From Alkalispirochaeta sp. (lineage in GTDB: Bacteria > Spirochaetota > Spirochaetia > DSM-27196 > Alkalispirochaetaceae), in NCBI GenBank assembly GCA_965601925.1, contig OZ271854.1:992001-1056000 (forward strand): a stretch of 64,000 nt of DNA. Direction: 5' to 3'. Both the position numbers and the translations under genes were made by a program. This document shows positions 11,473 to 48,906 of the stretch, piece by piece. The notes under the pieces are model-generated. The model saw only the letters and a program-made list of their open reading frames with translations, was not told the origin of the DNA and did not search any database. The first letter of the stretch is position 1, and each line of letters opens with the position of its first letter.

Positions 11473-11610
11473 GTCACCTCGTGTTGCGATGCGACGCCGT
11501 CAGGGTACCGGAAGGGGAGAGGATTATGCAAGGAGCCGGTTCGATGTGGGCTTCCGTGACGCCCCGGACGAGGCAACGGCCCGATCCGGAGTCTCGCGCG
11601 CTACGGCGCG

Positions 11611-23866: not shown

Positions 23867-25453
23867 CTACTCCGCTACGCCGGTTCCCGCACGGATGCGG
23901 TCCGCCGAGTCGACCGTCCCCCCGGCCATGAGGGCGCCGATATCCTCGATCCGCGCATCGTCTCGCCCTACGATTCCTACGATCCGTCCCTCGTAGATAA
24001 CCGCGATCCGGTCGGAGAGCGTTCGAATCTCGTCCAGGTCTTCGGATATGAGAAGAATGGCCGTTCCGTTGTCCCGTTGCGCCAAGAGCATCTCGTGAAT
24101 GTACTCCGACGAGCCGATGTCGACCCCTCGAGTCGGCTGCGCCGCGACGAGTACCGCGGGACTGCGCGACAGCTCCCGGGCGAGAATGAGTTTTTGGATG
24201 TTGCCGCCCGATAGGTTTTTGAGGGGAGAGGCGAGGCTCGGCGTCTTGACTGCGTACTGCCCGACCAGGGCCCCCGCGTGGCGTTCCATCTCCCGAAATC
24301 TCAGAAATATCCAACTGCAGAATCGCCGATCGGCGTGATCTCTCAGAAAGACGTTCTCCTGAACGGAGAAGCGGTCGATCGCGCCGTCCCGCATCCGCTC
24401 CTCGGGGACGCACGACAGACCGAGATCGGCCCGTTCATCGATCGTCGCATCGGAAATATCGCGTCCGTCGATGCGAATCGTTCCCGCGCGTTTCGGGCGT
24501 ACCCCTGCGAGGGCCTCGGCGAGTTCCCGTTGCCCGTTGCCGGAGACACCCGCCAGGCCGACGATCTCCCCCCGGTGAACCGTGAGATCGACGCCGCATA
24601 CCAGTTCGGTGCCGCGATCGCCCCGTACACGCAATCCCTCAACCGAGAGACCTCCCGGTTTCGTCGCGGCCGGAACCCGCTCGTGCCCGGACAGCTCGCG
24701 TCCGACCATCAATCGCACGAGCTCCTCGCGATTCACCTCAGAGGTGCGACGCGTGCCCATCGTCACCCCGTCCCGAAGCACCGTCACCCGATCACTGATC
24801 TCCAGTACCTCGTGCAACTTATGGGATATGAAGAGCAGGGAGTGCCCCTCCGCGGTCATACGTTTGAGCGTTCGAAAGAGATCCCGCACCTCCCCCGGAG
24901 TCAACACGGCCGTCGGCTCATCCAAGATTACGAGGCTCGCGCCCCGTTCCAGGACTTTGAGTATCTCAACGCGTTGTTGCTCTCCTACCGATAGCTGCCA
25001 GACCGACGCCTCGGGATTCACGGCCAGACCGTACGCTTCGGAGAGGTCGCGAATGCGCGAGCTCACCCGATCGAGATCCAGGCGGATACCTCGCGAGGAC
25101 GACCGTCCGAGGGCGAGATTCTGCGCCACCGTCATGGTCCGAACCAACATGAAGTGCTGGTGGACCATTCCTATACCGGCACGAATCGCGTCGGCGGGGG
25201 ATCGAAACGACACGGGACGTCCGTTAATGCGAATCTCGCCCCCGTCCGGTTGATACATTCCGTAGAGTTGGCGCATCAACGTACTCTTCCCGGCACCGTT
25301 CTCACCGAGAACGGCGTGGATTTCTCCAGAGCGCAGATCGAGCGAGACGCCGTCGTTGGCCCGCACGCCGGGGAACCGCTTTACGATATCGATCATTTCC
25401 ATATGGTCGATCCGAGCCGGCTCCGGCGTCGTGCTGAAACGCGCTATTCTCAT
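23867..25453 (-). CDS. Nucleoside/purine ABC transporter ATP-binding protein (CUT2, two NBDs); start uncertain
   Basis: GENGAGKST, LSVGEQQRVEI, LDEPT, GVSGNGQ, LSGGNIQK, ISEDLDE. Confidence 0.92.
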   Translation of the reverse strand: MRIARFSTTPEPARIDHMEMIDIVKRFPGVRANDGVSLDLRSGEIHAVLGENGAGKSTLMRQLYGMYQPDGGEIRINGRPVSFRSPADAIRAGIGMVHQHFMLVRTMTVAQNLALGRSSSRGIRLDLDRVSSRIRDLSEAYGLAVNPEASVWQLSVGEQQRVEILKVLERGASLVILDEPTAVLTPGEVRDLFRTLKRMTAEGHSLLFISHKLHEVLEISDRVTVLRDGVTMGTRRTSEVNREELVRLMVGRELSGHERVPAATKPGGLSVEGLRVRGDRGTELVCGVDLTVHRGEIVGLAGVSGNGQRELAEALAGVRPKRAGTIRIDGRDISDATIDERADLGLSCVPEERMRDGAIDRFSVQENVFLRDHADRRFCSWIFLRFREMERHAGALVGQYAVKTPSLASPLKNLSGGNIQKLILARELSRSPAVLVAAQPTRGVDIGSSEYIHEMLLAQRDNGTAILLISEDLDEIRTLSDRIAVIYEGRIVGIVGRDDARIEDIGALMAGGTVDSADRIRAGTGVAE

Positions 25454-25487
25454 ACGCAATCCGCGCATCCCGGATATGTCACCGTCT

Positions 25488-26495
25488 TCACGGCTCCACG
25501 GTGATTGATCCGTCGACGATGCCCGCGACGGCCGCCTCGGCGGCATCGATCACCTCCGACGGAATGTCGAATCCGTCGTTGTAGGCGATCCTGAGACCAC
25601 CGTTTGCGAGGGTTAACACGTAGCTCTCACCGCCGTATACGCCCCGTTGGGCGCTCTCGATGATCTCCGTCAGCATTGCAGTCCAGTCGTAGACTTGAGA
25701 GGCGACGACCAGGTCCGGCGCGAGGGAGGTCTGGTCGGCCTGGGTACCGAACCACAGGACCGCTCCGTCTTCCTGCGCCGCGCCGATCGAGCCCACCACG
25801 GACTGGGAGGATCCGGTGAGAATATCGGCACCGTTGGCAATGTGCGTCTGCGCGGCGGCGGTCATAAGCGCGACGTCTGAGAACGACCCGGTCCACGTCT
25901 GGGAGACGCGCGCAGTCGGCGCAACGGAGGCGACACCTTGGACGAATCCGCTGATATAGGTTCGGGCATCGCCGACCTCTACGGGACCGGTAACGCCGAT
26001 TTGTCCGCCCCGGGTCATGAGCCCCGCCATAACGCCGTTTACAAACCCGCCCTCCTCGGCCGCCGCGGTGTACGCGTAGACGTTATCGAGACCGAATGTA
26101 TTGACGTCGGTTCCCCAGGCGAAGGCGGTCTCCGGAAAGTCGGGGGCCATGTCCTCGACGAAGGTTCCGTATTGCGATCCGTGGGCCACGATCAGGTCGA
26201 AACCCTGAGAAGCGTAATCCCGTACCGCTGCGGCGGCGTCGGGGACGTTGAACATGTTCTCCGAATAGACCAACTCGACGGCGCTCTCGCCGCCCATCTC
26301 TTCCTGTACCGTCACCAGGGCCGACCACATCGACTGACTGAAGGCGGTATCGGTCGTGGCGCTCGGCATTACCACGGCAATGCGAAAACGTTCGTCTTCG
26401 CCCGCTTCCGACACCTCACCGCTTCCCCCGGCCCAGACTGAGGAGACGAGTACCACAAGACCAACAACACGGAACACCATCGATCGTACGTTCAT
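25488..26495 (-). CDS. BMP family nucleoside-binding protein
   Basis: Signal peptide VWAGG; DTAFSQS, DYASQGFDLIVAHGSQY, WTGSFSD; AAGGAG RBS. Confidence 0.88.
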   Translation of the reverse strand: MNVRSMVFRVVGLVVLVSSVWAGGSGEVSEAGEDERFRIAVVMPSATTDTAFSQSMWSALVTVQEEMGGESAVELVYSENMFNVPDAAAAVRDYASQGFDLIVAHGSQYGTFVEDMAPDFPETAFAWGTDVNTFGLDNVYAYTAAAEEGGFVNGVMAGLMTRGGQIGVTGPVEVGDARTYISGFVQGVASVAPTARVSQTWTGSFSDVALMTAAAQTHIANGADILTGSSQSVVGSIGAAQEDGAVLWFGTQADQTSLAPDLVVASQVYDWTAMLTEIIESAQRGVYGGESYVLTLANGGLRIAYNDGFDIPSEVIDAAEAAVAGIVDGSITVEP

Positions 26496-26557
26496 ATGAG
26501 TCACTCCTTTTGTTAGATGTCCTCTGCACCCTCCACGGGCGCCTTTTCTCGTATCCA

Positions 26558-27490
26558 TTATCCGCCGCCCCGTAAGAAAGGCGTGTTGAGCGCCGCAGGT
26601 CGTCGTCCCTTGTGAACGGTAACCGTTAGCGCGACGATGGTGAGGATGTACGGCAGCATGTTCGCGACGCTCGCCGGAATATCGACCCCGAGCACTTGGA
26701 GCCAGAGTTGAAGAGAGTTGGCGATACTGAAAAGGAGCGCACCGAGCATGACACCCACCGGCGTCCATCCACCGAAGTATACAAGAGCAACGGCGACAAA
26801 ACCCTGCCCCGAGGTCAAGTTATCTTGAAACAGATTGGATATCGATATCGAGAGTGAGGCGCCGCCGACGCCGGCGAGTATCGCACCGAAACAGACACTC
26901 GCATATCGCACTCGATTGACGTTGATGCCCCGGGAATCGGCGGCGTGCGGATTCTGCCCGACCGCTTTGACGGTCAGACCGATCGTAGTGCGTTCGAGAA
27001 TCCACCACGAGAGGGGCACCAAGGCAAAGGCGATGTACACGAGAATGGTATTGTCGAAGAAGATCGGTCCGACGATGGGTATATCGCTGAGACCGGGGAC
27101 GGCGAGGCGCGGAAAACCGCGAATCGTGCGCACCGTGCCGACCAACACTTTGAACAGAAGGCTCGACATGCCGAGTCCGAACATTTGGAGGCCGATGCCG
27201 CTCACCCCCTGTTCCGCCTTCAGGGTGACGCTGACGAACGCCATCATGAGTCCCATCACCAAACCGATTGCCATGGCACACAACAGGCCGAGCCAGAGGT
27301 TCCCGGTCGTCATAGCGACGTAGAACGCGCCGAAGGCACCCATAAGCATGATCCCGTCCACGCCGAGGTTCACGACTCCGGAGTTTTGGGAGAAGGTCTC
27401 TCCGATGGCGGCGAAGAGCAACGGCGTGGCGAGGGTCAACATCGTGTTCAGTAGTCCCACGAGCACCGAGGCGGTAAAGAGGTCCGTCAC
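26558..27490 (-). CDS. Nucleoside ABC transporter permease (NupC-like)
   Basis: ATPLLFAAIGE..SGVVNLGVDG; AVGQNPHAADSRGINV; GQGFVAVA; LPYILT; GTGA overlap with upstream permease. Confidence 0.9.
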   Translation of the reverse strand: MTDLFTASVLVGLLNTMLTLATPLLFAAIGETFSQNSGVVNLGVDGIMLMGAFGAFYVAMTTGNLWLGLLCAMAIGLVMGLMMAFVSVTLKAEQGVSGIGLQMFGLGMSSLLFKVLVGTVRTIRGFPRLAVPGLSDIPIVGPIFFDNTILVYIAFALVPLSWWILERTTIGLTVKAVGQNPHAADSRGINVNRVRYASVCFGAILAGVGGASLSISISNLFQDNLTSGQGFVAVALVYFGGWTPVGVMLGALLFSIANSLQLWLQVLGVDIPASVANMLPYILTIVALTVTVHKGRRPAALNTPFLRGGG

Positions 27491-28572
27491 GCGGCGGCCC
27501 CGGCTCGTGAGCGTATCCGACGCGTCCACCGGCTCGTCCACATGGCGGCTCCCGACACGAGGAGCACGACGAGTCCGAGTATCGCGCTCACGAGTGCCGA
27601 CGGCACCTGAACGGCGCGCTGCATCGTGTCCGCTCCGACCAGAAGCCCTCCGAAGAAGAGGGACGCCGGGATAAGGCCCAAGGGGTGCAGCCATCCGAGG
27701 AGCGCCGCCACGATGCCGGTGAAACCGTACCCGCTGGTGAAGCCCTCGATGAGTCGATAGTGGACCCCCATCACCTCTACCGCCCCCGCAAGACCGGCCA
27801 GCGCTCCGGCGAGAGAGAGTGAGAGCGCCTGGTGGGCCGGGACGTTGATTCCGGCGTAACGCGATGCGTGAGGATTCAAGCCCGTTGCGCGCAAGCGGTA
27901 GCCCACGGTGGTACGCCACAGAAAGACAAACACGACGACCGCCGTGGCGAGGGCGAGAAAGAGCCCGGAGTGAAGAATCGTCCGCGGCACGATACGAGCC
28001 AACCGTGCGTGCTCCGGTAATCTCGCCGACTGGGCGAGGAACGTACCGGCCTCGATACCCGCCGGGTCCATGAGCGGCCCCTGGAGCAGGAGATTCATCA
28101 ATTGTAGAGCGATGGAGTTCATCATAATCGTGGTAAGAATCTCGTTAACGTTGTACTTGGCCTTCAGAAACCCCGGAACGAAACCCCACACCGCGCCGCC
28201 TATACATCCGGCACAGAGCGCCGCCGGCACGAGGAGCCATCGCGGTAGGATCTGGGCGTAAAGGGCGAGCCACGTCGCCAGAAGCGCGCCGGATATCATT
28301 TGGCCGCGCCCGCCGATATTGATACAACTCGAGCGAAAGGCGATGCAAATACCGAGGCCGACGAGTAAAAGGGGAGTCGCTTTGACCAACGTTTGGGTGA
28401 TACCGAAGGTCGTCCCTGCGGCGCCGCGGAACATCGCGGCATATGCGACCCAGGGATTCGCTCCGAGCAGCACGAGAAGGAGCGCACCGATTACGAGGGC
28501 GATGAGGACGCCGGCGACGGGTACGACGAGTCTAATACCGAGTTCTTTCCAGTCGCTCCGGGTGAGGTGCAT
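27487..28572 (-). CDS. Nucleoside ABC transporter permease (NupB-like)
   Basis: ATPLLLVGLG..NIGGRGQ; NEILTTIMMN; GLNPHASRYAGI; GYGFTGIVAALLG. Confidence 0.9.
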   Translation of the reverse strand: MHLTRSDWKELGIRLVVPVAGVLIALVIGALLLVLLGANPWVAYAAMFRGAAGTTFGITQTLVKATPLLLVGLGICIAFRSSCINIGGRGQMISGALLATWLALYAQILPRWLLVPAALCAGCIGGAVWGFVPGFLKAKYNVNEILTTIMMNSIALQLMNLLLQGPLMDPAGIEAGTFLAQSARLPEHARLARIVPRTILHSGLFLALATAVVVFVFLWRTTVGYRLRATGLNPHASRYAGINVPAHQALSLSLAGALAGLAGAVEVMGVHYRLIEGFTSGYGFTGIVAALLGWLHPLGLIPASLFFGGLLVGADTMQRAVQVPSALVSAILGLVVLLVSGAAMWTSRWTRRIRSRAGAAA

Positions 28573-28583
28573 ATTCTGGTTCA

Positions 28584-28600
28584 AGCAAAATGCATACCAG
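28584..28600 (-). promoter_or_regulatory. Sigma54 (-24/-12) promoter for the nucleoside ABC operon
   Basis: CTGGTATGCATTTTGCT matches TGGYAYR-N4-TTGCW with GG-N10-GC spacing; AT-rich DNA upstream. Confidence 0.65.
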
Positions 28601-30469: not shown

Positions 30470-31660
30470 CTACCGGATCCTGCGCACTCCGGCGTCGACG
30501 AGCTCGTTCAGTTTCGATGCGGGCTCCTTGAACTTACTGAGAAAGATCATCGCCGCGATGACATACGGCTTGAAGCTCGCCTCCTTGTAAAGCGGTACCC
30601 GATAGCGGTCGAAGACCGTTGAAGCGACCTCGCCCTTCTCACAGCTGACACCGGTGATATCCGCCGGAAGGCAGTGCATGTACAGCGCGCTACCGGCGTT
30701 GGTCGTCGCCATGAGCTCCTCGGTGCACTCCCAGTCGGTGTGGTCGGCGTTCTGCGTCAACAGCTCCCGCTCCAGCGCCTTGATACCGTCGAAGTCGCCC
30801 TCGCCGTAAAGGGCCGTGCGTCGCTCCATCGCCGCAAAGGGTGCCCAGCTTTTGGGGTACACCACATCCGCGTCGGCAAACGCCTCGGCCATGCTATGGG
30901 TCTTGGTAAACCGGCCGCCCGACGCGGCGGCGTTCTTCCGTGCCACCTCTTCGACCTCTTCCATCACCTCGTATCCCGTCGGGTGGGCGAGCGTTACGTC
31001 GGCGCCGAAGCGCGTCAACAAGCCGACGATGCCCTGAGGTACCGAGAGCGGCTTCCCGTAGGAGGGACTGTACGCCCAGCTCATGGCGATCTTCTTACCC
31101 CGAAGCCCCTCGACACCGCCGAAGTGGTGAATGAGATGCAGTGCGTCGGACATGCTCTGGGTGGGGTGATCGATGTCGCACTGGAGGTTCACCAACGTCG
31201 GTCGCTGCTCCAGGACGCCGTCGGCGTGCCCCTCCTCAACCGCCCGGGCGACCTCGCGCATATAGGTGTTTCCTTTGCCGATATACATATCGTCCCGGAT
31301 GCCGATGACGTCGGCCATGAAGCTCACCATGTTGGCCGTCTCGCGCACCGTCTCGCCGTGGGCGACTTGACTCTTCCCTTCGTCCAGATCCTGGACTTCC
31401 AGGCCTAAGAGGTTGCACGCCGAAGCGTAGCTGAAGCGCGTCCGCGTAGAGTTGTCGCGAAAGAGGCTGATCCCGAGCCCCGAGTCGAAGACTTTGCTCG
31501 AAATGTTCGCCTCCCGCAGGGCGCGTAGAATATCGGCGACGAGAAAGGTGGCGTTAATCTCGTCATCGCTCTTTTCCCAGGTCAACAGAAAGTCGTTGAG
31601 GTACATCCCGCCGGTCTTGAGGTTTCGTAGTCGTTCGATGTCTCTTTTTAGTGTGTCCAT
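30470..31660 (-). CDS. ygeW: Knotted carbamoyltransferase YgeW
   Basis: FRDNSTRTRFS, GETVRETANM, NLQCDIDHPTQ, WAYSPSYGKPLSVPQG, MHCLPADI. Confidence 0.93.
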   Translation of the reverse strand: MDTLKRDIERLRNLKTGGMYLNDFLLTWEKSDDEINATFLVADILRALREANISSKVFDSGLGISLFRDNSTRTRFSYASACNLLGLEVQDLDEGKSQVAHGETVRETANMVSFMADVIGIRDDMYIGKGNTYMREVARAVEEGHADGVLEQRPTLVNLQCDIDHPTQSMSDALHLIHHFGGVEGLRGKKIAMSWAYSPSYGKPLSVPQGIVGLLTRFGADVTLAHPTGYEVMEEVEEVARKNAAASGGRFTKTHSMAEAFADADVVYPKSWAPFAAMERRTALYGEGDFDGIKALERELLTQNADHTDWECTEELMATTNAGSALYMHCLPADITGVSCEKGEVASTVFDRYRVPLYKEASFKPYVIAAMIFLSKFKEPASKLNELVDAGVRRIR

Positions 31661-31891: not shown

Positions 31892-33355
31892 CTACGCGTA
31901 CGAGCGCACCCTGGCGTTAAACGCGTCGATCATATCGTCCAGAACATCCCGCGCCTCGTAGATACGCTGCCAGTAATCCCGGTCGTACCACTGGGCGTTA
32001 ATCTCCTCATACGTCTTTCCCTGTTGTTCCACCCACGTGTAGTACTTGAGATTGTGAACGCGTTTGCGATCCTCGTAGCGTAACTCCAAAAGCGCGTCGG
32101 TACCGATCCCGTGCAACATCTCGAAGTCCGCCACGGCGTTGTCCCGGGAGTACGCCCCGCGCTCGGCGGTCAGCTCCTGCAACCGAGAGGTGTACAACGC
32201 CTCGGAGTCGGTAAAGACGGTCATCACCACGTCTTCCTCGGTGAGTTCGTAGTACTTTGCAAATTTAATGGCGGTAAGTACGTTACAGATACAGCTGATG
32301 CCGAGCGTGTCCAAGGCGTCGACGACCGTCGCGTCGACGCCCCGCTCCTTAAGGTACGCCCGGCCCGCAGGCTCGTTGAAGAGCCGCAACAGTCGCATCG
32401 TGTGCTCGTCGTCGACGGCTACCACCATATCGGTGTTCTTCACGTTGTGAATCCACGGCACGTGCTTATCACCGATTCCTTCGATTCGATGGCCGCCGAA
32501 ACCGTTTGAGAGGAGCGTAGGACACTGGAGCGCTTCGCTCACCGCGAGCTTTGCATCGGGGTAGATCGTCTTGAGATACTCCCCCGAAGCGGTAGTACCG
32601 GCGGAACCGGAGGAAACGCACGTTCCGGCGAAGCGGTCACGCGGCCCCATCACGCGTCGCAGGACCTTCTCCATGGCGTGTCCCGTTACCTCGTGGTGCC
32701 ACAGGTGGTTCCCCAACTGGTCGAACTGGTTGAAGATGAAGATGCCCTCCCCGCGCTCGGCGTCCAGTTCGTGGCACTTGTCGAAGATCTCCTTCACGTT
32801 ACTCTCACACCCCGGAGTGGCGATCGTCTCGTCGGCCATCTTCTCGAGCCACGCGAAGCGCTCCCGAGACATCTCCTCCGGCAGGATCGCGATCGATTTG
32901 CACCCCAACAGGCGTGAGATGTAGGCGCCGCCGCGGCAGTAATTGCCGGTCGAGGGCCATACCGCCATGTTCCGCTCCGGGTCGAACTGGCCGGTCACCA
33001 GCGTCGGGGCCAAGCAGCTGTAGGCCGCGCCGACCTTGTGAGCGCCGGTGGGGAACCATTTTCCCACCAACGCGACGATGCGGGCCTGCACACCGGTAAG
33101 CTCTCGCGGCATCTCGAAATAGTTGACCCCGGCGTACGTACCACCGGACTCCACCGGCTCATTCTCCCACGAGACGCGAAAAAGGTTGCGAGAGTGCACG
33201 TCGTTGAGGCCGATCCCCTTGAGCTCATCCCGTATCGCTGCGGGAATCTCCTCCGGGTGGGCCATCTGCCGGTAGGTCGGGAGCACGATGCCCTGCTTGG
33301 CGCAGAGTTTTGCATTCTTCTCTATCTGGGCGTCATGTTTGGTAAGGTCGATCAT
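31892..33355 (-). CDS. Fold-type II PLP-dependent enzyme of unknown specificity
   Basis: GKWFPTGAHKVGAA (PLP lysine), PSTGNY, SGSAGT phosphate loop, HRIEGIG; ATGA-coupled to upstream gene. Confidence 0.85.
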   Translation of the reverse strand: MIDLTKHDAQIEKNAKLCAKQGIVLPTYRQMAHPEEIPAAIRDELKGIGLNDVHSRNLFRVSWENEPVESGGTYAGVNYFEMPRELTGVQARIVALVGKWFPTGAHKVGAAYSCLAPTLVTGQFDPERNMAVWPSTGNYCRGGAYISRLLGCKSIAILPEEMSRERFAWLEKMADETIATPGCESNVKEIFDKCHELDAERGEGIFIFNQFDQLGNHLWHHEVTGHAMEKVLRRVMGPRDRFAGTCVSSGSAGTTASGEYLKTIYPDAKLAVSEALQCPTLLSNGFGGHRIEGIGDKHVPWIHNVKNTDMVVAVDDEHTMRLLRLFNEPAGRAYLKERGVDATVVDALDTLGISCICNVLTAIKFAKYYELTEEDVVMTVFTDSEALYTSRLQELTAERGAYSRDNAVADFEMLHGIGTDALLELRYEDRKRVHNLKYYTWVEQQGKTYEEINAQWYDRDYWQRIYEARDVLDDMIDAFNARVRSYA

Positions 33356-34554
33356 GAATCATCTCCGTTCCCTTGCGAAGTCGAGATAGGGTCTGCTCCG
33401 CCCACGGGGAGAGAGACTCCCTTCTTGGCGGAATCGATATCCTTGAGGCCGCTGCCGGTGACGAGGAGCACTACGGTTGAATCCTGCGGCACCTCATCGC
33501 TGAGTTTCAACAGACCGGCGTAGGATGAGGCGGCGGCGGGTTCGCCGAAGAGACCGCACCGCGATGCGAGCTCACGCTGGGCCGTCAAAATCTCGCGGTC
33601 CGAGACGACCACGGTCCGCCCCCGGTGGCGTTGCAGCCGCCCCAAAGCGAACAGTCCGCCCCGCGGGACATCCACCGAGATCGAGTCCGCAATCGTTTTG
33701 GAAGGGACCGGCGGGCCGAATGAGCCTGTGGCCAGGGCGCGAGCGATGGCGGAGGAACCTTCGGCTTGAACGGCGACCACCGTCGGCATCGCGTCGGCCA
33801 GTCCAAAGGTCACCAAGTCTTCGAACCCCTTATAGACGCCGCTGATAATCACGCCGTCGCCGGTAGGGACGAAGACGTAGTCCGGCATGCGGTCTCCCAG
33901 TTGCTTGAAAATCTCCAGCGAGACGGTCTTTTTCCCCTCGATGGTAAGGGGATTGTAGGCGGTATTGCGCGAGAGCCCGCCGTGCCGCTCCGTGTACTCC
34001 AACGATGCGTCATAGGCGACGTCGTAGGTCCCGTCCACCCGGATGAGATCGGCGCCGTACTGCTCGGCCTGAACCATCTTTGCCGGTGGGGCCGAGGCCG
34101 GCAAGTAGAGGCGTACGGCGATGCCGGCTGCGGCGCCGATGCCGGCCATGGAGCTCCCGGCATTTCCCGTGGAGGCGACGACGATGCGGTCGATCCCCTC
34201 GCGCCGGGCGTACGCCGAGACGAGATAGCTTGCCCGATCCTTGAGCGAGCCGGTGGGATTACCCGTCTCGTCCTTGAGGAAGAGCCCGGGACGGCCCAAA
34301 GCCTCTCGCAGCCGCGCGGGTTCCCAAAGCGGCGTATTCCCCACCGGGACCGGGGGAAACCATGTGCGCTCGACCGGCAACAGATCGAAGGCCTCCCATT
34401 CTTTTTCCGGCACGCCGTCCGGCACGACTTCCAAGACGCCCATGAGGGGCCGGTCGGGGGTTTGTAATGCAGAACAGTCGTCGCAAAGCATTCGATCCGG
34501 GGTAATTGGATACTCCCGACCGCACCGGCTGCAGCGATACGAAAAGCGGATCAT
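33352..34554 (-). CDS. Threonine synthase-like fold-type II PLP enzyme
   Basis: CxxC..CxxC N-terminus; VGNTPL, NPTGSLKDR, ASTGNAG, EGKKT, PTGDG, TGSGLKD. Confidence 0.85.
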   Translation of the reverse strand: MIRFSYRCSRCGREYPITPDRMLCDDCSALQTPDRPLMGVLEVVPDGVPEKEWEAFDLLPVERTWFPPVPVGNTPLWEPARLREALGRPGLFLKDETGNPTGSLKDRASYLVSAYARREGIDRIVVASTGNAGSSMAGIGAAAGIAVRLYLPASAPPAKMVQAEQYGADLIRVDGTYDVAYDASLEYTERHGGLSRNTAYNPLTIEGKKTVSLEIFKQLGDRMPDYVFVPTGDGVIISGVYKGFEDLVTFGLADAMPTVVAVQAEGSSAIARALATGSFGPPVPSKTIADSISVDVPRGGLFALGRLQRHRGRTVVVSDREILTAQRELASRCGLFGEPAAASSYAGLLKLSDEVPQDSTVVLLVTGSGLKDIDSAKKGVSLPVGGADPISTSQGNGDDS

Positions 34555-35777
34555 TGCTCCGGGGTATCCTCCAGTGCGTAGGGGAGCATCGCGTAGAAGG
34601 CGCTGCACTTCTCCAGATCGTCTACCCGAGTAATCTCGTTGGGTGCGTGGGCCTGGTCCTCGTCTCCCGGTCCGAATCCTATAGCGGGAATCTTGTGCCG
34701 CCCCGTTGTGGCGACGAGATTTGTGGAAAAGGTCCACTTATCGACCGTGGGTGGTGCGGACCATAGCGCTTCGTACGCACGTTTACCGGCTTGCACGATC
34801 CGGTGATCCTCGGGGATCTTCCACGTCGGGAAGTAGAGCTCTTGGGAGTAATCCGCCTCTTTCCACCCCCGTCGCGTGTAGTCCGGCATCGTTACCTCCA
34901 CCGCCGACTCGCTCTCGCCGATCGCCTCGGCAACGCACTCCTTTACCTGGCGAATCGCGAGGTCGGCATCCTCCCCCCAGGTGAGGCGGCGGTCCAAATA
35001 GAGCATCGCCTGGTCCGGGACGGCGCACTGCGACGGCCCCTTCACATCGATTTGGCTCACGACGATCGTGCCTTTCCCGAGAAAGTTGTCCTCGTCGGGC
35101 GCAAGTTCCGCGTTCAGTTTCTCCAACGCCAGGGCGGCTCGGGCGGCCTTGTACGCCGCGCTCTCTCCTCGCTCCGGTGCCGACCCGTGGGCCGAGACGC
35201 CGGTAAGACGCAGGACCATCTCCATGCGGCCCCGGTGTCCGCGGTAGAGGCGGCACGAGGTCGGCTCCGTCGAAACGACGAAATCGGGCTTGAGCCCCTC
35301 CTCCTCGATGAGGTACTTCCAACACATCCCGTCGCAATCCTCTTCCATAACGGTAAAGGTGAAGTACACCGAATACTCACCCGCATAGTCGAGGTCTTTG
35401 AGTATCCGCCCGGCGGTGATCATCGCCGCCGCACCGCCTTTTTGGTCGGAGGTGCCGCGACCGTGGACCAACCCGTCGGCGATCTCGCCCGAAAAGGGGT
35501 CCTTCTTCCATTGCGCCGGGTCGCCTACCTCTACGGTGTCGACGTGGCCGTCGAAGGCGAGCTTCTTCGGTCCCGATCCGATACGGGCGACGACGCTTCC
35601 CAAGCCGTCGATACGTACCTCGTCGAAGCCGTAGGACTCGCACATCTCCTTGATCCGCAGGCAGACGTCTTTTTCGGCGGCGCTGTAGGACTTGATACGT
35701 ACCAACTCGCTCAGTACACCGGCGGTCTCATCGCGATACTGCTGCGCCTTTTGTACAATGTCTTGTGCTTTACTCAT
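34551..35777 (-). CDS. ygeY: YgeY family M20 hydrolase
   Basis: DGHVDTV, GRGTSDQKGG, VMEEDCDG, GHRGRME, LDRRLTWGE, KWTFSTN, GFGPG..AHAPNE. Confidence 0.92.
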   Translation of the reverse strand: MSKAQDIVQKAQQYRDETAGVLSELVRIKSYSAAEKDVCLRIKEMCESYGFDEVRIDGLGSVVARIGSGPKKLAFDGHVDTVEVGDPAQWKKDPFSGEIADGLVHGRGTSDQKGGAAAMITAGRILKDLDYAGEYSVYFTFTVMEEDCDGMCWKYLIEEEGLKPDFVVSTEPTSCRLYRGHRGRMEMVLRLTGVSAHGSAPERGESAAYKAARAALALEKLNAELAPDEDNFLGKGTIVVSQIDVKGPSQCAVPDQAMLYLDRRLTWGEDADLAIRQVKECVAEAIGESESAVEVTMPDYTRRGWKEADYSQELYFPTWKIPEDHRIVQAGKRAYEALWSAPPTVDKWTFSTNLVATTGRHKIPAIGFGPGDEDQAHAPNEITRVDDLEKCSAFYAMLPYALEDTPEQ

Positions 35778-35825: not shown

Positions 35826-37151
35826 CTACGCCTCGATAGTCTTCATCCGTTCCCACAAGCGCACCGCTTGACCACGCGCCTCGCGGTAGATTGCCTCTGT
35901 ATCCGCGGAGAGTCGCCGGTCGCGCATTACGATACGCCCCTCGATCATCACCGTCTCCACGATCTCCGCCCCCATGCCGAAGACCATGTGCCCCGCGATG
36001 TTCTCCGCAACCAAGGGCGTCGGACTCGCGTAGGTCGCGACGACCAAATCCGCCGCATACTCAGGCTCCAAGCGCCCGAAAGAACGGCCGAATATGCGTC
36101 GCAGAATCTCGTTTCCCGACGCCAGGGCCTGCAAAAAATCTCCCGGTCCCAAGGAGCCGCCGGCGTCGCGATGTTTAAAATAGGCGCTCTTCAACTCGGT
36201 AAACATGTCGCCACCGATACCGTCGGTGCCGAGAGCGAAGTGTTTGAACTCCGGCAGACGGTGGTTGTACCCCACGTTGTTGTTCATGTTGGATCGACAG
36301 CTGTGCAGAAGAAAACCGTCGTGTCCGTTGAGAAGCTCGACTTCGGCGGCGCCCAGATGGGTGCCGTGGGCGACGAGACACTTCCCGTCTATGAGGTCGA
36401 AGTCCGCCAGGCGCGGAATCAAATCCTTACCGTAGGTGATATGCGAGTAGGAGGCGTCGTAAAGATCCTCCGCCACGTGTACATGGAATCCTCGCCCCGT
36501 CTCTTCGCACGCGTCGGCGACCATCTTCAGTCCGTTATCCGGCAGGGTCGCCGGTGCATGTCCACCGATGAGTGCCTCGGTGAGGCCCGACCAGGAGCCG
36601 GCGGTGCGCTCCTCGTCGATGCGCTTCGCAAAAGCGATGTTCTCCGCTACTCCCGCGCGCATCCCCGCCTCTCCGTGACGGTCGGTCACCTCGTAGCAGG
36701 TGACGCCCCGGAGACCCGCCTCCTCAAAGGCTCGTTGTATCGTCGCGAGGGATCCGGTAATGAAGTTAGGCGACGCGTTGTGGTCGACTACCGCCGTGGT
36801 ACCGCAGCGAATCGCGTCCAATGAGCAAACGAGGGCGGCGGAGTAGAGACTCTCCTCGTCCAGCGCGCGATCCATGCGCCACCATAGATTTTTTAGGATC
36901 GAAACGAAGTCCGGCGTGGGGCCGATCTCCACGAGCATCCCCCGGGCGAGGCCGGAGTAGTAGTGGTGGTGACTGCAGACGAGGCCGGGAAAAATCACCT
37001 TGCCGCCGGCGTCGACTACGGTCGCTCCGCCTTCGACCGAAATGTTCGCTCCGACCTCTTTGATCGCCGCCCCATCCACCAGAAGATCGTAACCCTCCCG
37101 TACTCGCGGCGGATCGAAGTCGACAAGGGTAGCGTTCTTAAAGAGAATCAT
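35826..37151 (-). CDS. ssnA: Amidohydrolase SsnA
   Basis: PGLVCSHHHYYSGLARG, LWWRMDRALD, HVHVAE, SNMNNNVG, LGTDG. Confidence 0.9.
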   Translation of the reverse strand: MILFKNATLVDFDPPRVREGYDLLVDGAAIKEVGANISVEGGATVVDAGGKVIFPGLVCSHHHYYSGLARGMLVEIGPTPDFVSILKNLWWRMDRALDEESLYSAALVCSLDAIRCGTTAVVDHNASPNFITGSLATIQRAFEEAGLRGVTCYEVTDRHGEAGMRAGVAENIAFAKRIDEERTAGSWSGLTEALIGGHAPATLPDNGLKMVADACEETGRGFHVHVAEDLYDASYSHITYGKDLIPRLADFDLIDGKCLVAHGTHLGAAEVELLNGHDGFLLHSCRSNMNNNVGYNHRLPEFKHFALGTDGIGGDMFTELKSAYFKHRDAGGSLGPGDFLQALASGNEILRRIFGRSFGRLEPEYAADLVVATYASPTPLVAENIAGHMVFGMGAEIVETVMIEGRIVMRDRRLSADTEAIYREARGQAVRLWERMKTIEA

Positions 37152-40100
37152 CGCGGCACTCCCGATATCGTCGGCTCCACGGGCCCGAACAGGTGAGGGC
37201 GACGCATACGCACCAACTCGAAGAGGCGAAAGAAGCGCGCCTCGTCGTCTTCACCCCGAGCCGCGGCGGCGACCTCGGCGGTGGTGAGGGTGCGCTCCGT
37301 TCCGGCGAAGCGCACCGTGACCGTGTCGCCCTTCAAGAGCCATCCCTGGTTGGTGCTCTGTGCGAAGTCCTCGGCAGTGCTGAACACCGTCGGCTTGTCG
37401 CGATACGGCAGCCCCTCCCACGGACAAAAGTGCCCGCAGTTGCCGCATTCGTTGCAGTACGCGTCGATGTGGACGATCTCGTACGGATTGTCGAAGAGCT
37501 CTTCATCGGCCACCGGCAGGGCGATATTGGCGCGATTGGGGCAGACGTCGACGCACTTATTGCAGACGAAGTCGCACTCCAGGCAGCGCGACCGCTCCAC
37601 GGCCCCGAAGCGGGCGGGCTCGTAATCGGAACGTGCGTCCGGCTTGGCAACGATCCGGCGCCGCTTGTCGGCGATGTGCGCCGCGCGCTCCTCGGCGTCG
37701 AGACGGGGCACGACTTCCGATCGCACCCAATCCGGCTCCACTCTGCGACAGATGGCGTCGGCGGCGCGGCGTCCCTCGGCGATGCAGTTGACGATGGTTG
37801 AGGCGCCGGTACGGCTGTCGCCGATGAGGAAGACGTTCTCAATCTCCGTCTCGCCGCCCTCCGACGTTGGGACGCCCCCCCGCTCGTCTGGGTGGAGGCC
37901 GAGATCTCGGAGCGAGACGACGTCCGGATCGTCGCCGATGGCGTAGACCACGCTGTCGGCACGAATCTCTTCGGTCGCGTCGGTGGGCACGGGACGACGG
38001 CGCCCCGAGGCGTCCGCCTCGCCCAAGGTCATGACGCGTACGGTAAGTGTTCCATCGTCGTTCAGCCGCTCAGGGCTGCGAAGCCAGCGAAACGCGACGT
38101 CGTCCTCCCGGGCAAACTCATACTCCTCACGGCTCGCCGGCATCTGTTCGAAAGCGCGACGGTAGACGATTGAGGCGCCCTCGACGCCGGGGCATCGTAG
38201 GGCCGCGCGGGCGCAATCCATCGCGGTGTCGCCGGCGCCGATCACGACGACCTCTTTACCCATCTCAAGCGTCGTCGCGTCGCGGTTGTACTGCAAAAGG
38301 AACGGGAGCGACGGATGGATGCGCGAGGAGTCCCCGCCGATCGGCAGATTCCTGGTTTGGTAGGTCCCCAGGCCCAGAACGACAAACTCGAAGCCCTTCT
38401 CTTTGAGTTCGTTCACGCTGATGCCGTGGGTGACGCCGAAGTGGAACTCGACGCCCATATCGCGGATAACTCCGACATCGCTATCGATCGCCTCACGGGC
38501 GATGCGAAAGTGCGGGACAACGTTGCGTACGACGCCTCCGGCGTCACGCTCCCGCTCAAAGACCGAGACGGCAAATCCCTCGCGGGCGAGAAAGTACGCC
38601 GCCGAGAGTCCCGCCGGACCGGCACCGACGACCGCCACCTTCTCGGACCGCACCGGGCCGGGGTGTCGTTGCGGACGATACGCGTCGATCCCTTTCAAGA
38701 CCGCCAGTCGCTTGACCTCACGGATGTTGAGGCAGCCTTCGTAGTCGAGGCGTGTGCAGACCAACTGACATTTATGGTCGCAGATATGGCCCGTGATCGA
38801 AGGGAGGGCGTTGCGTTCGTAGATGCACTCCAACGCCTCGTCGTAGCGCTCTTCCCCGACCAGGCGGATGTACTCCGGTATGTGCTGCCGAATCGCGCAG
38901 GCGGTGACGCACGGCGCCTCGTAGCAGTCGAACAGCGGTAGCGCTCCCGGAACGGCGACCTCGTCGGTGCCGCGAAACTCCTTGTGGAGGCTTCTCTCGG
39001 TATAGGAGCTCCGGGCGAGCGCGGCCAGCGCCGCAACGTCGATTCGACTCATCTCCCGGTCGTCGACGGCGTCCAACGCCTCGGCGATCTGCACTTGCCG
39101 GAGGTAGCCGCCGGGCTTCAACAGATCGGTGGCGAGCGTGACGGGGCGGATGCCGGTCTTGAAGACCGCTTGCGCGTTGTGAACGGTAATCCCTCCGGAG
39201 AAGGAGATCGGCAGCTCCCCGTCGAACGCCTCGGCGAGCCGGGAGGCGACGGTAATGGAGAGGGGAAAGAGTGCGCGCCCCGAAAGGTACATCTCGCCGC
39301 CGGGGAGCTCCGTGCGATTGTTCTTGGTCGCGAGGGTGTTGGTCAGCTTCACACCGAAACACCTACCGTGATCCGCCGCGACGGCTCGTAATCGTGCGAG
39401 GATCTCCAGAGCCTGTGGATACTGCAGGTCGTGCGCGAATCCCTCGGCGTCCAACGCGACGTAGCCGAAGCCGAGACCGGAAAGAATCGACGTCACGGTA
39501 TCGTAACCCAGAAGCGTAGGGTTAAGCTTTACATACGTGTCCAGCCCCTGATCGACGAGCATATGGGACGAGATCGCCTCGATCTCGTCCGGCGGACACC
39601 CGTGCATCGTCGAAAGAGTGACGGAGCGGCACATTCGCCCGGTCACGGTAAAAGCCTCGAATACCTTCGCTTTCTCCTCTAAACCGGTGCCGGCCAGGAG
39701 CGCCGGCATAACGGTGCGCACCTCACCGATCCACCGCGCAAAGAGCGCCTCTGCGGAAGAGTCCTTCATGCGGTTGATGTAGCGCTGCATCGCTTCGGTG
39801 CGTATCCCGGCCATGTCGTAGCCGACACTCATATTGAAGATGAAAGAACGCTCCAAGCCGGAAGCCTTCATATCGAAGAGCTCCTCGACGACGTGGAGCA
39901 GAATCCACGCCTTGGCGTACTCCCGCCACGCCTCCTCCAAGGAAAGCTCCGTGGACCACTCGGTGTTGTATCCCTCGTCGTAGGCGTCGATACACGGCTT
40001 CTCAATCTCAAGAGCGTCGAGGATCTGGACCGTTTTTAGTTCGATGAAGCGGCTACCGGTGAGATACGAGCACACGATATTGGACGCCAACTGCGTGTGT

Positions 40101-40282
40101 GGGCCGGCGGCCGGGCCTAAGGGTATCTCGCACGATTCGTTTAGAATGCGAACGGTGCGCGCGTCGGTTCGGCGGTACCAGGAGTCCTGAGGAATATCGA
40201 ATATCGACCGCTGTTCGCGATACTCCTCAAGCATGCGCCTCAGGAGTTCGCCTAACGGTACGAGCCTCATGTTGTCACCCAT
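37148..40282 (-). CDS. ygfK: YgfK Fe-S flavoprotein oxidoreductase (DPD-like; annotated putative selenate reductase subunit)
   Basis: GPAAGPHTQL, ELKTVQ, LSTMHGCPP, KLNPTLLG, GAGPAG, CLECDFVCNKCVDVCPNRAN, CNECGNCGHFCP; AAGGAG RBS. Confidence 0.93.
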   Translation of the reverse strand: MGDNMRLVPLGELLRRMLEEYREQRSIFDIPQDSWYRRTDARTVRILNESCEIPLGPAAGPHTQLASNIVCSYLTGSRFIELKTVQILDALEIEKPCIDAYDEGYNTEWSTELSLEEAWREYAKAWILLHVVEELFDMKASGLERSFIFNMSVGYDMAGIRTEAMQRYINRMKDSSAEALFARWIGEVRTVMPALLAGTGLEEKAKVFEAFTVTGRMCRSVTLSTMHGCPPDEIEAISSHMLVDQGLDTYVKLNPTLLGYDTVTSILSGLGFGYVALDAEGFAHDLQYPQALEILARLRAVAADHGRCFGVKLTNTLATKNNRTELPGGEMYLSGRALFPLSITVASRLAEAFDGELPISFSGGITVHNAQAVFKTGIRPVTLATDLLKPGGYLRQVQIAEALDAVDDREMSRIDVAALAALARSSYTERSLHKEFRGTDEVAVPGALPLFDCYEAPCVTACAIRQHIPEYIRLVGEERYDEALECIYERNALPSITGHICDHKCQLVCTRLDYEGCLNIREVKRLAVLKGIDAYRPQRHPGPVRSEKVAVVGAGPAGLSAAYFLAREGFAVSVFERERDAGGVVRNVVPHFRIAREAIDSDVGVIRDMGVEFHFGVTHGISVNELKEKGFEFVVLGLGTYQTRNLPIGGDSSRIHPSLPFLLQYNRDATTLEMGKEVVVIGAGDTAMDCARAALRCPGVEGASIVYRRAFEQMPASREEYEFAREDDVAFRWLRSPERLNDDGTLTVRVMTLGEADASGRRRPVPTDATEEIRADSVVYAIGDDPDVVSLRDLGLHPDERGGVPTSEGGETEIENVFLIGDSRTGASTIVNCIAEGRRAADAICRRVEPDWVRSEVVPRLDAEERAAHIADKRRRIVAKPDARSDYEPARFGAVERSRCLECDFVCNKCVDVCPNRANIALPVADEELFDNPYEIVHIDAYCNECGNCGHFCPWEGLPYRDKPTVFSTAEDFAQSTNQGWLLKGDTVTVRFAGTERTLTTAEVAAAARGEDDEARFFRLFELVRMRRPHLFGPVEPTISGVPR

Positions 40283-40504
40283 CGAGCCACTCCTTGCCCG
40301 CGGCACCCCCGGGCAACGCTATCGCTTCCACGGGAACGACCGGACGGTCGGTCCATCGGCCGACAAAAAAAGAAAGGTTGAGTTTAGGTTAATATCAAAA
40401 GCCGTGCGCTCTCGCGTTTTGTAGCTTTGAGATTATCCTACGTCCACCGACGGCGGCCGTCAAGACGACCGTCGAGTGGATATTATCTCAGTCGCACACC
40501 TATT

Positions 40505-41797
40505 CTAACCGATGAAGAAGTGCAGCACGAACACCGCGGCCACCACATAGGTCGCGACCCCCACTTCCTTGGCCCTACCGCTCAAGACCTTCAGAATCAC
40601 GTAGGATGTCAGGCCCCACACAATGCCTTCGGCTATGCTGTAGGCCAAGGGCATCATCACCATGGCCAAAAAGGCCGGTACGGACTCGGTAATCTCCGAA
40701 AAGTCGATCTCCCGGACAGGGCTCATCATGAAAACGCCCACCAGAATCAACGCCGGAGCGGTCGCGGCGCCGGGAACGAGGAGAAAGAGGGGACTCAAAA
40801 AGAGAGCGAGAAGAAACATGCCCGCGGTAGTGAGGGATGTCAGGCCGGTGCGGCCGCCCTCCTCGACACCGGCGGCGCTCTCGACGTAGGTGGTAACCGT
40901 CGATGTGCCGAGCATGGCGCCGACGGTGGTTCCTACCGCATCGGCAAAGAGCGCCTGTTTTGCCCGAGGAATCGAACCGTCCTCACGCAGGATACCGGCC
41001 TTTGTGGAGACACCGATCAAAGTTCCTACGGTGTCGAACATGTCGACAAAGAGAAAGGTGAACAGGACGATCACCATGTCGATGGTGAATATTCGGCTGA
41101 ACTCGAACTGCAGAAAGATAGGTGCCAAAGAGGGCGGCGCCGCCACGAGTCGGAATCCGGTAAGGTTGGTGACTCCCATAGGAATACCGATGATCGTAGA
41201 CCCGAGGATTCCCCACAGAAGCGCGCCGCGAACCTTGAAGGCGATCATGACGCCGGTGATGATCAGGCCGATGACGGCCAGAAGGGCGTTCGGATTTCCC
41301 AACGAGCCGAGCCCCACCAGAGTCGCATCGTTATTCACGATGATTCCGGCGTTCTGCATGCCGATAAAGGCGATAAAGAGCCCGATACCGACGGAAATCG
41401 CGCGCTTGATATTCATCGGAATCAGATTGATGATCGCTTCACGAATATTGAAGAAGGTCAAAATGAGAAAGATGATACCTTCGAGAAACACTGCGGTGAG
41501 CGCAAACTGCCAGCTATAGCCCATGCCGAGGACGACGGCGAAGGCGAAGAACGCATTGAGTCCCATACCGGGAGCCAACGCAAAGGGAAGCTTGGCAACC
41601 AAGGCCATCACCACCGTGGCAATGAGGGAGGCCAGAGCCGTGGCCGTAAAGACCGAGTCCGCCGGCATCCCCGCAGCCGAGAGAATGCTCGGGTTGACCG
41701 CGAGAATGTAGGCCATAGTCAAAAAGGTGGTGATTCCGGCGATAACCTCGGTTCGAACCGACGTGTTATGCTCTTTGAGTTGAAAAAAACGTTCCAT
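40505..41797 (-). CDS. NCS2 permease, AzgA/PbuG type (adenine/guanine/hypoxanthine)
   Basis: TEVIAGITTFLTMAYI, LAPGMGLNAFF, DMFDTVGT, TTYVESAAG. Confidence 0.92.
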   Translation of the reverse strand: MERFFQLKEHNTSVRTEVIAGITTFLTMAYILAVNPSILSAAGMPADSVFTATALASLIATVVMALVAKLPFALAPGMGLNAFFAFAVVLGMGYSWQFALTAVFLEGIIFLILTFFNIREAIINLIPMNIKRAISVGIGLFIAFIGMQNAGIIVNNDATLVGLGSLGNPNALLAVIGLIITGVMIAFKVRGALLWGILGSTIIGIPMGVTNLTGFRLVAAPPSLAPIFLQFEFSRIFTIDMVIVLFTFLFVDMFDTVGTLIGVSTKAGILREDGSIPRAKQALFADAVGTTVGAMLGTSTVTTYVESAAGVEEGGRTGLTSLTTAGMFLLALFLSPLFLLVPGAATAPALILVGVFMMSPVREIDFSEITESVPAFLAMVMMPLAYSIAEGIVWGLTSYVILKVLSGRAKEVGVATYVVAAVFVLHFFIG

Positions 41798-41856
41798 CTT
41801 TACTTCCCCTTGAGCTGAATAGTGATGACCCCCGCCCCGGGACGAACAGTTCACTC

Positions 41857-41989
41857 AGTGTAAACCTCCTTTTCTTTGGGCGCAACTTAAAACCTTCGCT
41901 CTTCAAATAAGCAAACGACGAAAATGGCGCCTCAAAAATGGGCATATTCAAACCTTTTCCTTGCTCGGTGATTCTCGCGGGGCTATTCT
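41857..41989. promoter_or_regulatory. Divergent sigma70-type promoters for the permease (minus) and ade (plus)
   Basis: Minus: TTGCGC-17-TACACT (41885-41857); plus: TTGCTC-17-TATTCT (41961-41989). Confidence 0.5.
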
Positions 41990-42006
41990 GAACGTGGGGG
42001 TACCGC

Positions 42007-43740: not shown

Positions 43741-43803
43741 AGAACGGGCCGTGCCCGCGTGCCGCCGACACGTTTCGACGACGCGCGGGTCACACATCCT
43801 CCG

Positions 43804-45219: not shown

Positions 45220-45364
45220 AGAGGCTGCTCCTTTTCTGTAAACGAGATGAAACAACTATTCTCACACCGCGCGTACTCCCGCGGTGAGAAGCGCCTATAT
45301 CTACCGGTACTCAGACGGTCGGCGCCACCATCGGTCGGCGCCGCCTATACTCCTGCGAGCGGCA

Positions 45365-48850: not shown

Positions 48851-48906
48851 AGGCGCCTCCTGTGCATATGCACCTATACTGACACTACTCCCGGTGATGT
48901 GCGCTG

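Follow-up and report, generated by a model that had tools for sequence, protein, structure and literature searches.

A ThrC-like and a CysK-fold enzyme in place of diaminopropionate ammonia-lyase in a purine-catabolic operon of Alkalispirochaeta

The Operon

The stretch of DNA analysed here (64,000 nucleotides of Alkalispirochaeta sp., contig OZ271854.1, positions 992,001 to 1,056,000; hereafter the window) carries on its minus strand a purine-catabolic operon with the gene order ygfK-ssnA-ygeY-THRL-PLPB-ygeW. THRL denotes a ThrC-like protein of 400 amino acids and PLPB a CysK-fold protein of 487 amino acids. In ygeW/ygeY/ssnA/ygfK clusters of the known type this slot is occupied by the gene for 2,3-diaminopropionate (DAP) ammonia-lyase (DpaL or YgeX, EC 4.3.1.15; TIGR03528, NF006058; structure 4d9g). 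DpaL is, like THRL and PLPB, a fold-type II pyridoxal phosphate (PLP) enzyme, but it scores below 40 bits against either of them in BLASTP, it is one gene instead of two, and its distribution is complementary to that of THRL.

In E. coli and C. sporogenes, urate is reported to be degraded via 2,8-dioxopurine and further intermediates to 2,3-diureidopropionate, DAP and pyruvate, the last step being catalysed by YgeX (bioRxiv 10.1101/2025.04.24.650524; PMC12507026). DAP accumulates in ygeX mutants (bioRxiv 10.1101/2025.04.24.650524), and both DAP isomers are described as equally good substrates of YgeX (PMC12507026). The pathway has been proposed to carry the R configuration, the origin of which is left unresolved in that account, as is the order of ureido cleavage (PMC12990295). 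One of the two pathway papers gives 3-amino-2-ureidopropanoate, not albizziin, as the intermediate (bioRxiv 10.1101/2025.04.24.650524; PMC12990295).

A sequence-only reading of the window had claimed that ygeY, the ThrC-like gene and the 487-residue PLP gene are joined by ATGA overlaps and followed by ygeW, and this is what the sequence holds (Table 1). A third such overlap joins ygfK and ssnA. The stop of PLPB lies at 31892 and the ATG of ygeW at 31660, 231 bp past PLPB. GGAG precedes the starts of both THRL and PLPB; the automatic list of open reading frames (ORFs) opened the THRL frame at GTG 34737, while the homologues align from ATG 34554. YgfK, SsnA, YgeY and YgeW all score above their NCBIfam cut-offs. 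A scan for promoters and terminators gave results close to chance (7 against an expected 3.5 +/- 2.1, and 9 against 10.3 +/- 3.1). Close homologues of the two proteins that carry names come from spirochaetes, and the THRL-PLPB pair recurs in purine clusters across many phyla; the arrangement is thus not due to chance.

Table 1. Features of the operon (coordinates of the window)
Feature	Position	Strand	Support
ygeW, knotted carbamoyltransferase	30470..31660	-	TIGR03316 752 bits, cut-off 500
PLPB, CysK-fold PLP enzyme, 487 aa	31892..33355	-	PF00291 52 bits; cysK 89.5 bits
ATGA overlap, THRL stop / PLPB start	33352..33355	-	sequence
THRL, ThrC-like fold-type II PLP enzyme, 400 aa	33352..34554	-	PF00291 252 bits; PRK08197 206 bits
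ATGA overlap, ygeY stop / THRL start	34551..34554	-	sequence
ygeY, M20 ureido hydrolase, predicted to yield DAP	34551..35777	-	NF009555 499 bits, TIGR03526 486 bits, both above cut-off
ssnA, amidohydrolase	35826..37151	-	TIGR03314 549 bits, cut-off 455.5
ATGA overlap, ygfK / ssnA	37148..37151	-	sequence
ygfK, flavin/Fe-S reductase (start codon unrefined)	37148..40306	-	TIGR03315 1299 bits, cut-off 835

The Host Genome

The host genome is a single contig of 5.05 Mb and is 96.7% complete. No dpaL was found in it: the best score against TIGR03528 is 21 bits, and a tblastn search with YgeX returned nothing at 1e-15. The genome encodes nine PF00291 proteins, namely THRL, PLPB and seven others that were labelled by sequence inspection as CysK, CysM, OrtB, DsdA, TrpB, a long-type ThrC and cysteate synthase. 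From this inventory it follows that the housekeeping ThrC and the two cysteine synthases of the genome are encoded outside the cluster. The Fe-S serine dehydratase SdaA was not found in the genome, and neither IlvA nor TdcB is among its nine PF00291 proteins.

THRL, a Relative of Threonine Synthase

THRL remains below the cut-off of every NCBIfam model (best PRK08197, 206 bits against a cut-off of 303; TIGR00260, 149 against 167), and no DpaL model (TIGR03528, NF006058, TIGR01747) is among the listed NCBIfam matches of either THRL or PLPB. BLASTP gives 37 bits between THRL and E. coli YgeX. The structure model (predicted local distance difference test, pLDDT, 90.8) is closest in fold to CapA2 (Z 39.9, root-mean-square deviation (rmsd) 2.7, 350 residues aligned) and to ThrC of M. 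tuberculosis (2d1f; Z 39.2, rmsd 3.1, 331 aligned); the match to DpaL 4d9g has a Z of 30.5. A quick tree of 71 fold-type II proteins places THRL on the ThrC side, in a group of its own (Shimodaira-Hasegawa-like approximate likelihood ratio test, SH-aLRT, 85) separate from short-type ThrC (99), and groups DpaL with DsdA (90).

Short-type ThrC (2zsj, 2d1f, 6cgq, 1uim) is about 34% identical to THRL, in which K105, STGN, K159, N197, E338 and T366 are present. K105 is the Schiff-base lysine. Invariant in 110 THRL sequences are K105, S128-T129-G130-N131-A132, K159, Y177, R196, G232-D233, A289-D290-S291 and E338, while position 366 is conserved as T or S. THRL differs from short-type ThrC in its catabolic context, in a four-Cys motif (putatively zinc-binding) at the N-terminus, and in the substrate site. 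Residues T88, N154, S155, R160 and N188 of ThrC (T. thermophilus numbering), which we take to bind the phosphate of O-phosphohomoserine, are conserved in solved ThrCs; the T, N-S, R and N were kept in six of seven control sequences. In THRL, T88 is replaced by A132, R160 by T, M or L204 and N188 by D233, each in 110 of 110 sequences, and F134 is Tyr throughout the family. Y177 of THRL is aligned with Y168 of YgeX and with a Tyr in DsdA; the DpaL of one genome (G179) has Phe there. The loss of the ThrC substrate site together with the two gained aspartates (D233, D290) would suit an amine-bearing substrate, and THRL is probably a descendant of threonine synthase with a rebuilt substrate site.

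Databases list the homologues of THRL and PLPB under the names threonine synthase and cysteine synthase, and one may ask whether the two are housekeeping enzymes that lie in the cluster by accident. We regard the chance of this as next to nil, and the explanation is rejected: separate thrC, cysK and cysM genes exist, both proteins score below the family cut-offs, the THRL group is separate in the tree, the ThrC substrate-site residues are changed, and the distribution of the pair is tied to ssnA (see below). That the ThrC-like gene might be the housekeeping threonine synthase had been named as an outcome that would speak against a role in the pathway; with a separate thrC elsewhere in the genome, it is not.

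PLPB, a Divergent Member of the CysK Fold

PLPB, too, remains below every NCBIfam cut-off (cysK TIGR01139, 89.5 bits against 351; TIGR01136, 80 against 344), and gives 28 bits against E. coli YgeX in BLASTP. Its structure model (pLDDT 95.7) has a CysK-type fold. The nearest fold is Fn1220 (5xem; Z 35.9, rmsd 2.0, 299 residues aligned), followed by CmnB (Z 32.8), SbnA (31.6) and DpaL (23.5), and in the tree described above PLPB groups with CysK/CysM (SH-aLRT 99). The scores against YgeX, the lack of a DpaL model match and the position of PLPB in fold and tree together uphold the view of the sequence-only reading that neither protein is a canonical DpaL; the other outcome that would have spoken against a role in the pathway, a 487-residue protein that is a true DpaL orthologue, does not apply either. 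The ESM Atlas yielded only PF00291 clusters with generic names. A PLPB homologue from a cultured source is WP_013252734.1 of Sediminispirochaeta smaragdinae.

The hallmarks of CysK-fold beta-replacement enzymes are present in PLPB: the fold, the Schiff-base lysine K107, Q210 and S354 (the serine at the pyridine nitrogen). Among 181 PLPB sequences, K107, PSTGN, E184-S185-N186, Q210, H289-H298 and S354 are invariant. The CysK-type loops PTSGNT and HKIQGIGAG are not matched; PLPB has PSTGNY at 134-139 and HRIEGIGD at 289-296, and the family shows PSTGN[YF] and HRIEGIGDK in 181 of 181 sequences, with E292 and D296 unchanged in all of them. Residues 270-325 find their best match in the cysteine (hydroxyl) lyase Fn1055 of Fusobacterium nucleatum (5b53, 5b55), in a short alignment (E 0.002) of HRIEGIGD with HRIEGISD. 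D296 is aligned with the residue mutated in the D232N structure of Fn1055, whereas the two loop positions 292 and 296 are taken by Q and A in ordinary CysK. Fn1055 is reported to form serine and H2S from cysteine and water; its Asp232 is described as a key residue that is critical for L-cysteine specificity (PMC12940168, PMC9865163). PLPB thus resembles Fn1055 and the CysK/CBS/SbnA/CmnB family in fold (Z 31-36), in K107, Q210 and S354, and Fn1055 itself in the HRIEGIxD loop with the Asp that matches D232. It differs in that it is only about 20-25% identical to any solved member, has PSTGN in place of PTSGN, contains the invariant ESN insert (184-186), and occurs in a purine-catabolic context. 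It also has extensions of its own, about 80 residues at the N-terminus and about 90 at the C-terminus, the latter with a conserved HNLKYYTWVEQ motif. Over the whole chain, the similarity to Fn1055 is not above that to CysK, and the equivalent of Ser74 is Thr136, as judged via an alignment with CysK.

The R configuration proposed for the pathway leaves room for a racemase: PLPB could interconvert the two enantiomers of DAP (or those of the ureido precursor), one of which would then be the substrate for elimination by THRL. Fold-type II racemases exist (5ybw, 1v71), and Thr136 of PLPB stands at the position of Asp120 in DpaL. However, the model of PLPB matches the CysK type with a Z of 35.9 and the racemases with 26.4 and 25.5, and the tree puts it with CysK/CBS (SH-aLRT 99). 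Such a division of labour is quite improbable.

Distribution of THRL, PLPB and DpaL

The Spirochaetota sample comprised 251 genomes including the host, with ssnA in 51, ygeW in 35, PLPB in 23 and DpaL in 32. THRL was sought in the 51 ssnA-positive genomes and in one ssnA-negative genome with PLPB; a match counted as an orthologue at 219 bits or more, or as a split gene (G023), while housekeeping ThrC reached at most 164 bits. As searches with PF00291 can miss PLPB (they did in G726 and G254), calls of absence rest on searches with the PLPB protein. PLPB is present in 22 of the 51 ssnA-positive genomes and in one of the 200 ssnA-negative ones, and that one has ygeW. Among the 51, THRL occurs without DpaL in 23, DpaL without THRL in 26, both in one and neither in one. 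The full breakdown is THRL with PLPB (19), THRL only (4), DpaL only (24), DpaL with PLPB (2), all three (1) and none (1). Counted by spirochaete family, seven have THRL, three DpaL and one both (p 0.024).

A second sample came from the Clostridia, of which 300 genomes were scored. An ssnA match of at least 299 bits was counted as positive, which gave 25 genomes; a further 11 with only 238-251 bits were excluded as other amidohydrolases. THRL is present in nine of the 25 and DpaL in 16, with no genome having both or neither. In detail, 14 have DpaL only, two have DpaL with a divergent, unlinked PLPB, and nine have THRL with PLPB, one of the nine being the centre genome, which was selected for PLPB. 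Exactly one of THRL and DpaL is thus found in 74 of the 76 ssnA-positive genomes of both samples (nominal Fisher p 3e-12 and 5e-7, kinship ignored). A non-orthologous end to the pathway, which the sequence-only reading had proposed, gains support from this complementarity and from the lack of dpaL in the host. The mutual exclusion with ygeX that it had named as a check is strict for THRL; it fails for PLPB, which is also found alongside DpaL.

PLPB accompanies THRL in 29 of 33 THRL genomes (20 of 24 spirochaetes, nine of nine Clostridia) and occurs in four of the 42 genomes with DpaL and no THRL. In a genome of 1.5 Mb (G254), PLPB is present and neither THRL nor DpaL was found. A TAG was flagged within the PLPB match of G179, where the ORF is intact (485 aa). 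Among 171 Chloroflexota genomes, to which no ssnA filter was applied, PLPB occurs in 26, a THRL-like protein in 35, both in 21 and DpaL in seven; in G716, the THRL-like and DpaL matches each carry a flagged stop. Ten of the 14 loci with a THRL-like match and no PLPB were examined. Two, those of G658 and G698, have intact motifs and belong to purine clusters, and that of G614 adjoins xdh genes.

These counts bear on a further explanation, in which THRL alone replaces YgeX and PLPB works off the DAP node, e.g., as a cysteine (hydroxyl) lyase that gives sulfide for molybdenum hydroxylases. The published description of Asp232 as critical for L-cysteine specificity fits this, PLPB lies directly after xdhB in 11 of 181 loci and after an XdhC-type accessory gene in two of 181, and it occurs with DpaL in five genomes that lack THRL. 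Yet molybdenum hydroxylases are present in all these genomes, and PLPB tracks THRL rather than DpaL, even when it is unlinked (five of five genomes, see below). A role of PLPB off the DAP node is unlikely. A role of PLPB as a sulfur alternative to selenium was also considered and is unsupported, the selenium-cofactor gene yqeB being present in five of ten pair genomes tested.

Gene Neighbourhoods and Exchange of Partners

The neighbourhoods of 180 PLPB homologues were compared: 20 from Spirochaetota (20 of the 22 other positive genomes; G019 and G125 were left out, as their loci are split at contig ends), 80 from metagenomes and 80 from GTDB genomes, the latter two being the best 80 of about 600 each. 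THRL is present in 98 of these loci, a DpaL-like gene in two and any purine-catabolic gene in 123; for the 91 loci of at least 15 kb, the numbers are 58, one and 74. In 68 of the 98 pair loci, THRL and PLPB lie on the same strand at most 1.5 kb apart. Named hosts of the PLPB loci include Spirochaetota, Chloroflexota, Clostridia, Halanaerobiales, Thermotogae, Bipolaricaulota, SAR324, Actinomycetota and Desulfobacterales. In loci of the Anaerolineae type, a GT2 glycosyltransferase gene lies directly upstream of PLPB (32 loci, e.g., L114:855-1796), and PLPB is followed by a gene for a 189-residue protein without a Pfam or NCBIfam match (31 loci, e.g., L160:12571-13140).

The genes for removal of the ureido groups differ among the 98 pair loci. 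YgeY with a carbamoyltransferase is encoded in 22, two carbamoyltransferases in 19, one such gene in 12, and none in 45, as far as the fetched DNA extends. In the 19 (e.g., L036, L038, L059, L140, L148), two carbamoyltransferases other than YgeW and a carbamate kinase replace YgeW and YgeY, which suggests two phosphorolysis steps. Wherever the gene set is visible, it suffices to take off both ureido groups before the pair acts, so that DAP is the likely substrate that reaches the pair. The sequence-only reading had also considered that one enzyme eliminates urea directly from albizziin (3-ureidoalanine) and bypasses YgeY. Beta-substituted alanines are indeed substrates of CysK-fold enzymes, there is weak similarity to O-ureido-L-serine synthase (E 3e-5), and the 45 loci without a ureido-removing gene would fit. 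On the other hand, YgeY and YgeW are both kept in the host operon, 41 of the 98 loci encode two ureido-removing enzymes, and the intermediate placed in one pathway paper is not albizziin, so that direct elimination of urea is disfavoured and appears highly improbable.

The partners of the two genes can be exchanged. Five genomes have an unaccompanied PLPB locus; in all five, THRL and ssnA are encoded at another place, and no DpaL was found. The second fold-type II enzyme beside a PLPB in purine clusters is THRL, DpaL (in the same cluster, G179) or a divergent ThrC-fold protein. The gene for the last lies directly downstream of PLPB in G638 (L275:7849-8889), G702 (L276:7523-8572) and G726 (L277:7703-8728); the protein is 26-27% identical to THRL, its best NCBIfam score is 84.5 bits, and those clusters have neither THRL nor DpaL. 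It may represent a third way to carry out the terminal step. Conversely, THRL of G698 (L263) has a short CysK-like protein (10548-11603) as its partner instead of PLPB. Such short proteins (also L311 of G614 and L267:15123-16200 of G627) score above the cysK cut-off, have the TTGN and H[KR]IEGIGD loops like PLPB, and adjoin THRL or sit in a purine cluster. Finally, G037, G047, G067, G090 and G658 have THRL in a purine cluster, and neither PLPB nor DpaL was found in these genomes. The asymmetry between the distributions of THRL and PLPB and these exchanges argue that THRL is the functional substitute for DpaL and PLPB a coupled partner. Otherwise similar clostridial clusters have DpaL in G322 (L368, L279), with a divergent PLPB on another contig, and THRL-PLPB in its place in G289 and G402 (L362/L363). 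This is consistent with displacement of one by the other, perhaps of THRL by DpaL.

The Proposed Terminal Reactions

YgeW and YgeY, as has been published for E. coli and Clostridium, would here by orthology strip both ureido groups and leave DAP. THRL, judging from its profile and residues, would then act on DAP by beta-elimination of ammonia, with the PLP-aminoacrylate as intermediate and pyruvate and two NH3 as products, as an analogue and not an orthologue of DpaL. PLPB would add water to the aminoacrylate (DAP + H2O to serine + NH3) and act beside THRL on the same C3 pool, perhaps on the enantiomer that THRL takes poorly. Separate enzymes for D- and L-DAP, which the sequence-only reading had suggested, are a possibility. 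As DpaL accepts both enantiomers, PLPB would be dispensable in genomes that have DpaL. The full statement, THRL as a non-orthologous DAP ammonia-lyase and PLPB as a DAP beta-replacement enzyme that makes serine, is the preferred reading among those considered; it is put forward tentatively and stops somewhat short of being probable.

The two enzymes might also work in series, with PLPB making serine from DAP and water and THRL dehydrating serine to pyruvate, so that both genes are needed. The Fn1055-type loop of PLPB is in line with this, and so are the presence of PLPB in 20 of 24 THRL- and ssnA-positive spirochaetes and nine of nine such Clostridia, the lack of SdaA, IlvA and TdcB in the host inventory described above, and the logic of the exchanged partners (the short CysK-like protein of L263 with the same loop, the divergent ThrC-fold protein of L275-L277). 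However, in the five purine clusters named above, THRL was found without PLPB, a short relative or DpaL, and the invariant acidic D233 and D290 of THRL would suit an amine-bearing substrate. The serial route has an appreciable but low probability. That THRL at least fills the step of YgeX, with the serial route included, is very probable.

Several observations weigh against the proposal that THRL has taken the step of DpaL with PLPB at its side. The genomes are kin and not independent; 23 of the 26 spirochaetes with DpaL only or with DpaL and PLPB belong to one family. The four spirochaete genomes with THRL only are drafts (88-97% complete), in which PLPB may be unassembled. PLPB occurs with DpaL and without THRL in G012, G179, G322, G501 and the chloroflexotal G675, where it may be a relic or have another job, and THRL, PLPB and DpaL are all present in G138 and G723. 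In Chloroflexota, 14 of 35 THRL-like matches come without PLPB; those of L266-L270 are related more distantly and do not lie in clear purine clusters, and the relatives in G634 (L261:8995-10245) and G714 (L262:9085-10335) lack the catalytic Lys (Ala/Thr in the alignment) and are probable pseudo-enzymes. The two lysine-less genes adjoin those for carbamate kinase, XdhD and adenine deaminase. With regard to the active site, Lys77 and Asp120 have been described as potential catalytic residues of DpaL (PMC4000059); the catalytic Lys is present in both proteins, but the position of Asp120 is Thr129 in THRL and Thr136 in PLPB. Lastly, the host genome has no clear HyuA orthologue (best 29%).

Other Purine Genes of the Host

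The gene with the best match to HyuA is 36% identical to an allantoinase-like cluster protein. A second purine-type cluster (2233691-2244993 of the host contig, L372) holds genes resembling those for allantoinase, HIUase, XdhD and 8-oxoguanine deaminase; the first of these may provide the HyuA step missing here. A third (2360810-2374757 of the host contig, L373) holds carbamate kinase, xdh genes and mocA. Carbamate kinase is thus encoded elsewhere in the genome, outside the operon cluster; YqeB and YqeC were not found in the host genome. In the window, genes for xanthine-dehydrogenase subunits, adenine deaminase and NCS2 permeases lie upstream of the operon (40505-51744), and ORFs resembling a BMP-type nucleoside ABC importer lie downstream (23867-28584).

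Significance

The elucidation of the reductive urate pathway in 2025 left YgeX as the one known exit. Of the 76 ssnA-positive genomes, 33 have THRL and 32 of these lack YgeX, so that a common form of the pathway has no assigned enzyme for its last step. This is easily overlooked. Li et al. scored as YgeX any PF00291 protein within 15 genes of ssnA (PMC12507026, legend of Fig. 3g), a criterion by which THRL and PLPB would both be counted as YgeX. The other survey demanded 50% identity to YgeX, yet four of seven genes sufficed (bioRxiv 10.1101/2025.04.24.650524). The main texts of the two primary pathway papers do not mention cysteine synthase or threonine synthase. No literature on the THRL-PLPB pair was found in a search whose scope was open literature outside subscription journals and supplements, and supplements may mention the genes.

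What is new is the displacement of the last enzyme of a known pathway by two uncharacterised, non-orthologous families, which databases misname as threonine synthase and cysteine synthase. Both proteins look soluble and model well, and what they do bears on the stereochemistry of the pathway (PMC12990295). In the most far-reaching form, which we consider possible if not quite probable, PLPB would be a diaminopropionate (hydroxyl) lyase, and the descendant of ThrC a second ammonia-lyase for DAP (or serine), of independent evolutionary origin. If this is true, a large share of the anaerobes with reductive urate degradation (many Spirochaetota, Chloroflexota, Clostridia and others) would use an undescribed terminal chemistry, and purine carbon would enter their metabolism as serine as well as pyruvate.

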